From positions 22,258,001-22,322,000 of the forward strand of contig OX597830.1 of NCBI GenBank assembly GCA_951406725.2: DNA of 64,000 bases, given 5' to 3'. Both the position numbers and the translations under genes were made by a program. Below the pieces are notes generated by a model. The model had not been told where the DNA came from and did not search any database. It saw only the letters and a program-made list of their open reading frames with translations. The first letter of the stretch is position 1, and each line of letters opens with the position of its first letter. Of this stretch, positions 1 to 56,561 are shown one piece after another. Source of the stretch: Octopus vulgaris. Taxonomy: Eukaryota.

Positions 1-3000
1 TACAAACAAAGACACTGGAACTGTTCTGCAGGTAATTAAAATTTACTACACCTTTTGCATCGTTCTACTAATTATATTGCACTACTTGTTTTAGTGCAAG
101 TTATTACTTTCATTTCATAATTGGTAATTAGTGTTAGATATGGTATGATTTAATTAATATGAAAATTATTTTACTTGCTATTCAGCAGTTACTTATATCT
201 ATCAAACTTAACCAGTTATAATTCCACTGATAATTCTTGAAACATAAAACCATTTCAGGACCAAATATTTTAATTCATATATACACAATTACATTAGATA
301 TAAAGATAGGTGATTTTTTTCTTAATATGGATGAAAGTAATTTTACTTCACAGTTCAATAGTTAATTGTATTTGCTATGAAGTTAATCTGTTATAAATTC
401 CACTGATGATTTCTCAATCTGAAAACCATTTGAGAACAAAATAGTGTGATTCTTCACTTGTCGTTCACAATTGTGTTTAACAAAAAGATCATCTTCATCA
501 TCATCATCATCGTTTAAAGTCCGCTTTCCATGCTAGCATGGGTTGAACGATTTGACTGAAGACTGGCAAACCAGATGGCTGCATCAGGCTCCAATCTGAT
601 CTGGCAGTTTCTACAGCTGGATGTCCTTCCTAACGGCAACCACTCCGAGAGTGTAGTGGGTACCTTTATGTGCCACTGGCACGAGGGCCAGACAGGCGGT
701 ACTGGCAATGCCATACTCAAATGGTGTTTTTTACGTGCCACCTGTACAGAAGCCAGTCGAGCAGCACTGGCAACGACCTCGCTCGAATGTTTTTTCATGT
801 GCCACCAGCACAAGTGTCAGTAAGGCAACGCTGGTAACGATCACGCTTGAATGGTAGTTTTTACGTGTCACTGGCACGGAAGCCAGTTTGCTGCTTTGTC
901 AACGATCACGCCCAAATGGTGCTTTTTATGTGCCACCGGCATGGAAGCCAGTTTGCTGCTCTGGCAATGATCATGCTCGGATGGTGCTCTTAGCGCTCCA
1001 CTTGCATGGATGCCAGTCATCGAATTCGGAAAAATATTTTTTTCTGTCATTTGTTGTTGTTGTTAGTCATATTAGTCATTTTCTTTCTTCACTTTTCAGG
1101 AAGAATCTGATGATCCATTAAAGGATACCACAGGTATGAAATTCGTTTTCTTTAAATTTCCTAAAATAGTCTATTTATTGCATACTTAGATTGACCCTAT
1201 ATCAGTTGTTTCGTTGTCTCAATGAAAATAACAAAACACAACTCTACTATCATTTTGCCAGTGATATACATGTTGCTCATAAAGGCTTGTATTAACCGTT
1301 TAGCATTTAAACTGGCCATATCCAGCTGAAATATTCTATGTTTTATGTTCAAATTGGCAAGATTTGGCTTTTCACACTTACTCTACAATGTCATTGTATA
1401 AATAAACTATCACATCATTGATATCCTGAAGCTACAAAATAATGCATGGTTAATTCAAAATAATGTGAATAGATAAGCATTATATTTGACAGAATAATCT
1501 GAATGCTAAAGGGTTATGTATAGTTTATATGAAGTTGTAGTTTAGAATGAATTACATTGGTTCAATATATGGTAGTCAAGTACTAATCTGGTAGGTGGTG
1601 TTATTTGGAGAATGTTTACTTTCTCTCTACCATTGTCTTTAGCATTGAAAATTGGTTTGTACAGTTTAGTTTTAAGAGACAATTGTAGTTTGCTGAACTA
1701 GTAGTTTACAACGAGTCTGTGGTTCATTTTGTGTCTCTGGAGCCACAAATTATTAATTTTATTGCAAAACTTAAAATGACTGTAATTAGTATTGCATATT
1801 TGCAATGCAATGGTGAAGTTCCCATAAAGATAATTAATTCTGGCTCTTGTGCTTCAATATATTTAATTTGAGTGTATGTATAGCTTTGCTATATGATGTA
1901 GTATCTCATACAAATTTTTCCAAGTTAATATTTATTTAAAAATAACTGTACTTGTGTTGAATTTGTACACTGAAGGTAATAGTTAGTTGACAAATATTTC
2001 TGAATATTGTCTATAAATGTAATTGGTGTTACATACATTCAGAAATTTTGAAACTTCTCAATGTTTAGAATGTTACTAATTTTGAATATATAGGGTTTGT
2101 CATACGTTGTACAGTAAGTTTATAATAATTATTGGGTTGAATTGTGATAATCAATTAAGTTTACTTAAAATGATACATACCATATAAATGGTATTATTTA
2201 TATACCATATCAATGTTTGCATATAAAGTTTATAATATCATATAAATGCTTGCATATGAAGTTTAACTGCAAACATTTTCATTTTCAGAAATATGAGTTA
2301 ATTATGTTACATCACAGTAACTAAGGCTCAATTCTGCCAGGAAATGTTGATGTACTTGTGCAGTGATCTCTGCTTTGTTGTTCAGATATTTTGGTCAGAT
2401 GAGGCAACATTTCATGTGAATGGCATCATCAGCTGATATGACTGTCTTTTATGCTGCAGAGGATCTTCAGCAAATACTAACGAAAGGTGTAGCCTATCCC
2501 AGAATGTGTACTTGGGCTGCAATCCACAGTTCCAGTATAATTGGAAGCTTCTTGTTTGACAGCAGATGCTGTAGTTTCTGTTCAGATGTCTGACAGTGAC
2601 TTATGTACTTGTGTAACGACTTGTATCAGGGATTGTGTTTATATATATGAAATTTTATGCATTGCATGTGTTTGTGTATGTGTGCATACATGTTTAGTAA
2701 GCGCCAGGTAATTGAGAACAAAGTAAAATACAAAGAAAAAGAAAGATATTAAAGCTGTAAAACATATTTCTAGGAAAATGGCGCATATATTTGACTAGAT
2801 TTATTAAAGAAACAGATTATTTAATAAAACCTTCCACATTCACAATGATGGTTTCAATGCGGCCATGGAAATAACTGGATGACATAATCAGGTGGTTCTC
2901 ATTAATGTTGCCTGTCACATCGGCAATAGTGGCCTTCAACGAGTCCTTGATGTTGTGGAGCTGCTGGTTGGTTTCTCTCTTCATGACATCCCAAGTGTAG

Positions 3001-54258: not shown

Positions 54259-56561
54259 TTTTATTCACTGTAAACCACTCGCAAAGTGTTATATTTATTC
54301 ACTATGTATTCCTCATGACTTTCCTTTATTCTATATTTTTTCTTTATGTTCTCTGGTTTTGCTCTATATTACTCAACTTTCCTCTTTCTCTCTCTCTTTC
54401 TATCTTAACATGTCCCTGTTTGTTTTCCTTGAAGTTTCAGGTGGAACAGTCAAAATGTTTATTTTTGTATCAGTCTGATTTTGATGACTTTTTATCAACT
54501 TAATTTTCACAAAAAGTTCATTCATTCAAACAAATTCCTTCTGTGATGGCCTCGTCCAGAATTGCTGTAGCCTTGCTCATAGGTATCACGACCTGGCTAT
54601 TTTGCTATGTGCTGCCACAGAACCTTGCACACAATGACATTTTTGTGTGCAATTATTGGCAGAGGATTTGAAGAAGGAGGTCCAACTGAAAATATAGGAG
54701 TTCATAATGTCTCAGACTTGCATGAGGCTTTCAATCATACCTTATAAGTTCCCAGAGTTAACACTCACATCATAAGTAAAGTTGTTCTCTAGTGATTTCA
54801 GGTGAATTCTGACAATCATCTCAGGTAGTACATCAGCTGACAGGTGGAGAGGATGTCTCAGAGAAACTTATATTTAAAGATAAGAGTAAAAACTTTAATC
54901 TTCCTACATGTCTGAGTGCTGCTTGTAACAACTGTGTGTCAGTATCCCAATTTGCAAAACTTTTCCTTCAGTAAGGAACAATGATCAGCCACTAATGAAC
55001 TTGAGAACGTAATTGTGAAAATACAAACAAAAAATTTGTAATACAATCATCAATACTACAATAAATACTATTAAATATTTATCCTAGCTCCTTGCGAAAT
55101 TATAGAAATTAAGCCCGACTCTTTGAATGTGCTCTCCTAACTACCAAAAATCACATTGTGCAGGATATTAATGCTGCTAACATTCAACAGATACAGTCCA
55201 GTCTGGAGGGAACAAATCAGTTCAGACACGCATCATGGGTTGGATGGTTTGAAAGGATCTGACGAGCTGTAATAATGTCTGGCCCCAATGTTGTTTTTTG
55301 GCATGGTTTGGGTGGCTGGATGCCCTTCCTAATGCCAACCAGTTCATGGAGTGTACTGGTGCCTTTTTCCTGAAACTGGCTCTTCTGATGTCACTAAATA
55401 ACTTGCAAAGATGAAGTAAAGGAAGGAAAAAAGATCTCCACTGAATAGGAGTGTACTTGAGAGAAGGGAATTGGCTTTATGTCAGGTGTTGAAGGCAAAG
55501 GTGTGATAGAGGGACAAGCATAGTTGTCTTGCTACAGATGAGATAAATGTCTACCTCACATTATTGCAAGGGTAGGTGAGAGTAGCTGGAAGGAAGATAA
55601 AGCTGTTGGTGACAGGTTGCCAGAGCATACTCTGAGTACAAGATGAGTATAGTAATTTCATAACTAGAGGTGAATGCAATTGTTTGTAGCTGACTTTAAT
55701 GATGCTACTGACTTACGAGAGGAGTCCATTATGGATTGAAGTCCTGCATTAGCTATACAAAGAAATGGCGTGCTCTAACTGTAAACAAGTTTGGATATGT
55801 TCTTTACTCTTGAAGCAGATGTATTATTTATTTCCATGTGTATTTCTCTTCAAATGCTTCATGTATACATACTACACTGTGTTTAAAAATAGCTATTTTC
55901 AAAAAAGCTACTTTTAACTTATGTTTTTTGCTTGTTTCAACCATGCAGGGGTACCACTTGAAGGATTTAGTCCAGGCCTGGCCAACTCAAATTGCATAGT
56001 GGGCCACTGGTATACTGAATTGAAAGTATTTTGCTTTCTCGTGCTATTATTACAATAATGAATGAATGATAGTTGATTCAACATGAAATATTATCGTTGC
56101 AAAAACAGTAATATCTTTCTTTTTTACTTTTCATGACAATCTTTAATTTTTGATAATTTTTAAAAAATGATTGTTTAAATAAATCCATTTCAAGAAAGTA
56201 TGAAGCAGACCTCAGGTTGGCCAGCCCAGTCAAACAAATCAACCTCCAGTACTTATTTTTTAAAATTCTAGCACTTGTTATATCGTGATTCTTGCTGAAC
56301 CAATAAGTTACAGAGGTGCAAACAAATGATAAATGGCTGTCTAGCAGTGGTTGAGAAACAAACACACACGTATATAGATATCCAAAAGGCTTCCACAGTT
56401 TTAAGGCATTGGTCGATCTGGGGCTAGTATCTTTTCAATTACTGTCACAGATTTGGACATTTTAAAATTGAAATTAAGTGAAAATTTAAAAAATTTTGTA
56501 TACTTGCTGGACCTAATTTACAGATTCATTTAAATCAGAAAAAAGTTTAGTAAAATGTTAT

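Follow-up and report, generated by a model that had tools for sequence, protein, structure and literature searches.

We analyzed a 64,000-nucleotide stretch of the Octopus vulgaris genome (assembly GCA_951406725.2, contig OX597830.1, positions 22,258,001 to 22,322,000 of the forward strand; hereafter the window, numbered from its first letter) that holds two neighboring genes of the SAFB family. A sequence-only reading had described the locus as a tandem array of derived SAFB genes with complementary domain changes: a remodeled RRM in copy 1, a broken SAP exon in copy 2 and a probably truncated C terminus in both. Among the SAFB paralog types A to F that we distinguish in Octopus, copy 1 is E and copy 2 is F.

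Two colinear SAFB units

Self-BLAST of the window gave a plus-strand colinear series of matches between 3-26540 and 32835-56402, at offsets of about 30-35 kb, and confirmed the tandem homology of two SAFB units. The homology covered exons, introns and the 3' flank alike; an alignment was obtained for 11,830 bases out of the first 26,900, and identity across 218 windows of 100 nt had a median of 80%. This is far under the haplotype level, and the copies are not uncollapsed haplotypes, the case that the sequence-only reading had named against itself. The mobile-element insertions also differ between the units, as it had observed: a Pif1 helicase piece at about 36.4-36.9 kb is found in copy 2 only and a PHD-bearing piece at 13.8-14.2 kb in copy 1 only. 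The ratio of observed to expected CpG reached 0.95 at 27001-28000, flanked by 0.68 in the 26-kb bin and 0.56 in the 28-kb bin; between 29 and 56 kb the 1-kb bins gave 0.08-0.49. This agrees with the suggested position of the copy 2 promoter directly after unit 1. Exon ends in both copies were placed by coordinates and splice dinucleotides. The noncoding parts of the units are

26600-28400 (approximate limits), plus strand: CpG-rich promoter-like region of F, from the CpG ratio by bin
20972-26540, plus strand: 3' untranslated region and downstream flank of E, with patchy homology to 53739-56402
53739-56402, plus strand: 3' untranslated region and flank of F, where the repeated unit ends (self-BLAST)

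Copy 1 and its remodeled RRM

Copy E has an open partial frame of 658 amino acids that ends at 20971, contains no internal stop and is 98.0% identical over 658 residues to the Octopus sinensis protein XP_036366413. Its own 5' exons, a SAP exon among them if there is one, are located beyond the start of the window; the first 102 residues of the O. sinensis E model are the same as those of copy B. The coding exons in the window are

1-31, plus strand: 3' end only of an upstream coding exon; translation matching the XP_036366413 residues ahead of EESDDP, donor at 31
1100-1133, plus strand: exon of 34 nt
5053-5539, plus strand: large acidic exon, 98% like paralog D and 65% like B
7851-7885, plus strand: linker exon
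8038-8132, plus strand: remodeled RRM exon 1 (RNP2)
10842-10991, plus strand: remodeled RRM exon 2 (RNP1; tyrosine to histidine, phenylalanine retained)
11517-11677, plus strand: post-RRM exon, the last D-like exon; three lysine-rich exons of canonical copies are missing ahead of it
13447-13572, plus strand: first 126-nt EK-rich repeat exon and first B/C/F-like exon; its acceptor is used in public B-to-E models
15575-15700, plus strand: second 126-nt repeat exon, from an internal duplication of about 2.1 kb (self-BLAST)
17763-17909, plus strand: exon
19626-19811, plus strand: exon without counterpart in F, spliced in a contig of run X14
20092-20225, plus strand: exon, spliced in the same X14 contig
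20676-20971, plus strand: last coding exon with an early stop; old tail out of frame to 21021

To place the RRM of E, we used a vertebrate-rich reference collected with a canonical query, in which 175 proteins gave 169 ungapped RRMs (120 of them non-cephalopod, 42 distinct) and 51 of the 78 alignment columns were at least 95% invariant. E kept 33 of the 78 consensus residues, where the lowest of the 42 non-cephalopod RRMs kept 55, and was altered at 27 of the 51 near-invariant positions; the remodeling of copy 1 was thus corroborated. The SAFB-type RRM signature is absent from E, though the domain is still an RRM by Pfam (33.7 bits on RRM_1 with a cut-off of 20.7; canonical Octopus copies 45.8-49.9), and phmmer matched it to solved RRMs with a best E value of 2.4e-6. 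At what we take to be the RNP positions, E retains the RNP2 tryptophan and the RNP1 arginine and phenylalanine, with the RNP1 tyrosine replaced by histidine. The lysine-rich region behind the RRM, listed as a SAFB feature in PMC2857882, is lacking in E, together with its three exons. A search with the second RRM exon of E returned three relatives among four candidates.

A 401-nt contig of run X14 joined the E blocks 19629-19810, 20091-20220 and 20671-20759 with no differences and no introns. The RNA status of this run and of X17 is a guess.

Copy 2 and its lost SAP domain

Copy F has an open frame of 842 amino acids from ATG 30483 to 53738 with no internal stop. It is 97.0% identical to O. sinensis XP_036366415, which begins at the residue matching this ATG, and its 3' half matches the O. 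vulgaris model CAI9735053. The exons are

27057-27192, plus strand: dead SAP exon with a CTG start and a +1 shift at 27133-27138, donor intact
29893-29921, plus strand: small exon, now noncoding
30462-30513, plus strand: exon with a stop at 30480-30482, then the likely new ATG 30483
32073-32104, 32624-32860 and 33185-33218, plus strand: exons
39503-40007, plus strand: large acidic exon
41650-41690, plus strand: linker exon
41824-41918 and 42792-42941, plus strand: canonical RRM exons
44338-44425, 45158-45289 and 45827-46017, plus strand: lysine-rich exons, not in E
46938-47101, 48878-49003 and 50447-50572, plus strand: coiled-coil exons
52115-52261 and 52907-53046, plus strand: exons
53449-53738, plus strand: last exon with an early stop as in E; old tail out of frame to 53791

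Four lesions were found, all 5' of ATG 30483. The SAP exon has CTG as its start codon and aligns to the intact paralogs in two frames, with the +1 frameshift at a run of six A; the exon that precedes 29893-29921 in other paralogs could not be detected in F between 27193 and 29892 (score 24 against a shuffle mean of 23); and the exon at 30462-30513 carries an in-frame stop with the ATG directly behind. The SAP exon of copy 2 is therefore broken, as had been claimed, and F has no SAP domain. Its orthologs in O. sinensis and Octopus bimaculoides are annotated without one, and Pfam gave no SAP match in the orthologs P0002 and P0001. No ATG occurs in the putative 343-nt leader, which consists of 26900-27192 and two small exons, where 7.2 are expected, and 30483 would consequently be the first start; since leaders are usually poor in ATG, this gives modest support only.

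The remainder of F is conventional up to its end. Its RRM keeps 68 of the 78 consensus residues and the SAFB-type signature (45.8 bits on RRM_1 for the ortholog P0002), and the lysine-rich exons at 44338-46017 are present and open. Between F and its O. bimaculoides counterpart, 77 of 77 RRM residues and 291 of 300 C-terminal residues are identical. No F-specific spliced contig was among the matches listed, the one piece listed being record 14 of run X17 (26747-26899); the stretch compared held the first exon of F alone, so that this is uninformative on F expression.

A shared frameshift at the C terminus

Both frames end in GGGI followed by a stop, with the former tail of about 19 amino acids one frame off just behind it (20968-21021 in E and 53735-53791 in F), and the two early stops represent one shared frameshift. 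The tail motif is recognizable in Octopus copies A to D and in proteins of argonaut, cuttlefish, bivalve, bee and amphioxus; in O. bimaculoides, F has the same protein end as here. The truncation proposed for both copies thus held as to the early stop but proved slight, the G-rich part being present and only the last 19 or so residues lost. The R/E-rich repeat is present and duplicated, with 3 ER/RE dipeptides per 75 amino acids against 9-20 in copy A and outgroups; throughout copies B to F it is EK-rich (2-4 such dipeptides per 75 amino acids, where copy A and six other SAFBs have 9-20). The 126-nt coiled-coil exon is doubled by an internal duplication of roughly 2 kb (11.4-15.7 kb; 46.9-50.6 kb), along with a leftover of the preceding exon at about 13608-13657 and 49039-49088.

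Assembly errors, whether uncollapsed haplotypes or frameshifts from homopolymer errors, have next to no probability as the source of these features. The SAP frameshift does sit in an A run, and PMC10700109 reports that the O. vulgaris reference was made with nanopore reads. The copies are, however, only about 80% alike, and contigs of two other DNA runs, under two species labels, span the run: record 20 of run X2 (organism A; 26341-27165, 825+6 letters) and record 28 of run X4 (organism B; 26650-27165, 516+2 letters). Their lengths allow inserted letters only, so that no base is missing at the A run and an assembly error is unlikely there, with the bridging marginal as both contigs stop 27 letters past the run. 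Contigs of X14, X17 and X4 run across the early stop of E with no gap there, and orthologous proteins share the early stops.

The Octopus SAFB array

Copy number, order and the upstream flank were derived from public protein models, not from the whole genome. Protein cluster look-ups gave at least six paralog types in Octopus: A, B and C combine SAP with a canonical RRM, D combines SAP with a remodeled RRM (35 of 78 consensus residues), and E and F complete the set. Within each species, all models listed come from a single scaffold, with a length of 59.4 Mb for O. sinensis, 80.0 Mb for O. vulgaris and 57.4 Mb for O. bimaculoides, and have near-consecutive accessions. Named O. bimaculoides counterparts exist for A, B, C, D and F; the counterpart of E is P0173, which groups with E (99/96) and whose species assignment is inferred. 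No E-type protein was among the eight O. vulgaris models retrieved. In the trees E and F fall inside cephalopod SAFB, and they are colinear with a shared exon structure.

These results agree with the proposal of a lineage-specific expansion with canonical relatives elsewhere, perhaps upstream. Copy B likely sits just upstream of the window, as suggested by the O. sinensis models that join B 5' exons to copy 1. The notion of complementary domain changes, by contrast, does not survive: A, B and C retain SAP and a standard RRM, D is a second copy with a remodeled RRM, and E and F suffered the same tail loss.

The reshaped RRM is not shared by the non-cephalopod molluscs examined, so that the second case that had been named against the array fails as well. 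In the protein databases, which are no genome census, these molluscs have a standard RRM, and their clusters look like single genes with isoforms, with the exception of two Bulinus entries more than 90% alike on different scaffolds. Argonauta has two near-identical SAFB entries on one contig. The cuttlefish Acanthosepion pharaonis has two or three SAFB models on one contig, forming their own clade in three trees (support 99/97, 92/78 and 80/77); a grouping of the diverged cuttlefish copy with D and E was rejected by the approximately unbiased (AU) test (p-AU 1e-5). Other arrangements seen among the proteins (P0011, P0060, P0063 and P0057) were a cuttlefish two-RRM model on one contig with the diverged-RRM paralog, and a fused tandem SAFB pair in the salmon louse, which indicates that SAFB duplication happens outside Octopus too.

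Automatic models of these genes are already present in RefSeq and ENA (XP_036366408-428, XP_029646790/860, CAI9735048-056 and XP_052829889-92, named SAFB1, SAFB2 or SLTM-like), but the paralogs are not told apart by these names and several of the models are chimeric between copies. In O. vulgaris the copy A model is joined with a 320-residue neighbor that is annotated apart in O. sinensis (P0042 and P0043). We take this neighbor to be gag-like; P0043 had no match in the window.

The chimeric models bring in the main rival explanation, in which E, and in some cases F, serves as a 3' cassette instead of standing alone as a gene: B transcripts would splice their SAP-coding 5' exons onto E or F exons and so swap RRMs and tails. 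Clustered protocadherin-type loci provide a loose analogy. In six of the seven O. sinensis isoforms XP_036366408-414, the 5' exons of B run on into exons of E, at E exon 13447 in five cases and after the first 102 residues of B in one, and two of the four O. vulgaris models CAI9735053-056 join B to F. The B-to-E junction peptide is found in neither E nor B alone, and the joins come from two species and two annotation sets. The joined exons are, however, near-identical between copies, so that read mis-mapping or model merging can yield chimeras, and F has a CpG-rich promoter region of its own. We regard the cassette arrangement as doubtful, its standing as the strongest competitor notwithstanding. 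The joins in CAI9735053-054 and XP_036366408-414 fall at exon boundaries, as either true cross-copy splicing or chimeric annotation.

Mosaic history and a conserved block at a splice site

The exons of E are closest to D up to 11677 (98, 74, 78 and 58%) and closest to B or C from 13447 on. Phylogenetic trees reflected the same division: the N-terminal half grouped D with E (100/100), while the C-terminal half placed E with B, C and F (99/98). Constraining D and E together in the C-terminal half gave a p-AU of 0.027 (the group having been named after the tree was seen, and under a simpler model), whereas an E+F clade in that half was neither recovered nor rejected (p-AU 0.30). Within each species, D and E have species-specific residues in common. 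The F model of O. sinensis has a large exon of B/C type, at a place where the F type is found in the window and in O. bimaculoides. From these patterns, unequal crossing-over and gene conversion likely made the mosaic; chimeric gene models could mimic part of the signal.

One short block departed from the general divergence of E and F, and it borders a possible alternative exon:

5391-5624, plus strand: 234-bp block of exon end, weak donor and first 85 intron nucleotides, 97.9% identical to 39859-40092
5540-6702, plus strand: candidate longer form of the exon, with a stop at 5571, that would reach a stronger distal donor at 6702 (41205 in the alignment with F)

The 85 intron bases are 100% identical between E and F, against a median of 80% elsewhere, and the block spans a 78% purine exon end and the weak donor (5539 in E and 40007 in F). 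In E and F alike, the highest donor score of the region falls about 1.2 kb farther downstream, and both cuttlefish paralogs retain the exon-end peptide as well. The block may be a candidate poison-splice feedback switch, with a gene conversion tract as the alternative. Beyond the first 85 nt, the candidate extended exon was not clearly more conserved than eight control introns (84.6% against 73.6-88.7%). An account by RNA structure or editing found no support: a hairpin over the donor was nonsignificant (z 0.59 and -1.28), and other donors gave similar values.

Selection outside the RRM

The ratio of nonsynonymous to synonymous substitution rates (dN/dS) between E and F was 0.50 over 580 codons. 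In six larger non-RRM regions the ratio was 0.27-0.47, with nonsynonymous exceeding synonymous differences per site (pN > pS) in only 1-2% of bootstraps; two short regions with few changes gave 0.83 and 0.46. Under simulated neutral substitution of 0.1 per site, with indels left out, a stop-free E was obtained in 3 of 2000 runs and a stop-free F in none of 2000.

If E and F were transcribed pseudogenes or neutral by-products, conversion from functional neighbors would have to keep them intact-looking. Conversion does seem active, given the species-specific residues shared by D and E and the B/C-type large exon of the O. sinensis F model, and the four 5' lesions of F and the early stop in both copies also speak for this explanation. 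Yet the lesions of F lie only upstream of the new ATG; the exons specific to E and F differ by 10-60% from the other copies and were thus not recently converted, are open and have dN/dS below 0.5; and the copies have persisted for about 34 million years, the age given for the O. vulgaris-O. bimaculoides split in PMC10700109. We consider this explanation very improbable.

Proposed function and points against it

The reading that we favor, with a probability of roughly 0.6, is that E and F belong to an old tandem array with six or more SAFB paralogs, have open frames kept by selection and likely act as specialized nuclear RNA regulators beside the canonical copies. The role as modulators or in RNA surveillance that the sequence-only reading had suggested is plausible in view of the SAFB literature. 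Array growth by unequal crossing-over and patchy conversion would have given E a D-type 5' half and a B/C/F-type 3' half. For human, mouse and fly, PMC10901741 reports that SAFB binds purine-rich nascent RNA and suppresses transposon-derived and cryptic splicing; A, B and C may retain this ancestral job and so have freed the other copies. F would be translated from ATG 30483 and reach purine-rich nascent RNA via its unchanged RRM, without a DNA anchor. Since fly SAF-B without SAP remains in the nucleus and depends on RNA for its recruitment (PMC2857882), F is likely an RNA-only SAFB. The RRM of E would still be folded but bind other RNA, or bind more loosely; PMC9958909 describes the RNP motifs of human SAFB2 as the RNA contact surface, and going by the sequence E likely has an altered RNA-binding surface or preference. 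The same source notes SAFB dimerization. Through the coiled coil, E and F may enter SAFB oligomers and tune the suppression of transposon-derived and cryptic splice sites.

Several observations weigh against this reading. Any SAP exon of E, and its promoter, would lie outside the window; the evidence for its splicing comes from one contig of guessed RNA status, for which a processed DNA copy is another possible source. The loss of the conserved terminal RF-x-x-Y-type tail may cripple both proteins. The RRM of E differs from that of its likely ortholog P0173 at 13 of 77 sites, against no differences for the RRMs of B and F. In the RRM, dN/dS between E and F is 0.93, and divergence is at the level of neutral drift: 32 residues are identical, against 31.3 in neutral simulation, and the 22 of 27 hydrophobic positions kept (simulated mean 18.8) were matched in 242 of 2191 stop-free runs, which is nonsignificant.

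The same numbers speak for an alternative in which the RRM of D and E is decaying under relaxed constraint, with RNA binding gone, and only the coiled coil and the low-complexity tail let E act, by damping canonical SAFB or serving as its decoy. The change at over half of the near-invariant positions and the continuing rapid change between species also fit decay. On the other side, the RRMs of D, E and P0173 contain no indel or stop, and both the Pfam match and the aromatic core of the RNP motifs persist. The D/E branch, moreover, bears nearly all amino-acid replacements, since the canonical side barely changed, and its RRM dN/dS could be near 2 if silent changes are assumed to split evenly. 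With the RRM at 0.93 and lower values outside it, dN/dS does not separate retargeting from decay. We judge decay unlikely, slightly more so than the cassette arrangement.

Returning to selectively kept regulators, a bolder form is conceivable but speculative: the Octopus array may be a diversifying version of a pattern-guided anti-transposon splicing guard that is normally single-copy, with RRMs retargeted under positive selection to new RNA (possibly octopus retroelements), a SAP-less RNA-only form, cross-copy splicing that combines 5' and 3' halves and a parallel expansion in cuttlefish.

Other features of the window

The CpG ratio was 0.7-1.1 throughout 57000-64000, unlike the gene bodies, giving this interval a promoter-like or unmethylated look. 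No third SAFB copy begins within it. A remnant near 59.6-60.8 kb, without Pfam match, is presumably retroelement-like. Pfam identified a Pif1 helicase 2B-domain fragment in an F intron (36124-36902, minus strand), which we take to be Helitron-like, and a PHD/C1-bearing fragment in an E intron (13803-14420), which we assume to be LINE-like; 9 of the 11 intronic or flanking open reading frames of the window had no Pfam match, and Rfam gave no family match in the window. Self-BLAST revealed an inverted repeat at 34646-35538. A contig of run X4 (organism B) links 23443 directly to 25037, about 1.6 kb of E flank (23444-25036) being missing there. Contig depths in the same run were uneven (45-241 over 19600-22340 and 26650-27165, against about 23 on neighboring pieces), and depth does not equal copy number.

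Comparison with known SAFB genes

Our full-text searches brought up no published account of an octopus or cephalopod SAFB expansion; subscription papers and further supplements may list one. The term SAFB is absent from the main text of the O. vulgaris genome paper (PMC10700109) and from the supplement files of PMC13218726, PMC9795677 and PMC9068888 (one, three and one files), and no mapped role for the SAFB terminal motif was found in passages of bioRxiv 10.1101/2025.09.09.675111 and PMC10605862. This expansion of an RNA guard that is usually present as one gene, old and mosaic and including a lost domain and a rewritten RRM, is thus apparently undescribed so far. PMC10901741 states that invertebrates have a single SAFB and describes it as a non-adaptive RNA-level transposon defense, and PMC13282606 gives the O. 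vulgaris genome about 66% repeats with transposon bursts at 18-56 million years. A six-member array at least 34 million years old, with the RRM rewritten in two copies, would offer a natural test of whether this defense can adapt, and would also test the separate contributions of SAP, RRM and terminal motif. Chimeric octopus SAFB gene models, meanwhile, affect expression studies. If the derived copies merely drift, the array is an unusual but modest gene-family expansion.

Compared with the SAFB family at large (human SAFB1, SAFB2 and SLTM; Drosophila Saf-B CG6995), the Octopus copies are clearly related by descent, with the acidic region, coiled coil and G-rich tail in the same order, and the RRM of F is close to consensus. 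They differ in number, with at least six types against a single invertebrate gene, and in content: neither copy passes as a canonical SAFB, as anticipated, for SAP is gone from F, the RRM signature and the lysine-rich exons are missing in E, and both lack the terminal motif. The vertebrate SAFB1/SAFB2 pair likewise consists of neighboring paralogs able to dimerize (bioRxiv 10.1101/2025.09.09.675111 and PMC9958909); the human genes are head-to-head with all domains kept, whereas the octopus copies are head-to-tail, more numerous and mosaic, some with a domain lost or rewritten. Other invertebrate SAFB duplicates share one contig in cuttlefish (CAE1316075/76 and CAE1316081) and salmon louse (XP_071746959, the fused pair), one cuttlefish RRM also being diverged (54 of 78 consensus residues). 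The cuttlefish copies form their own clade and are less extreme, and the two cephalopod expansions are likely parallel.

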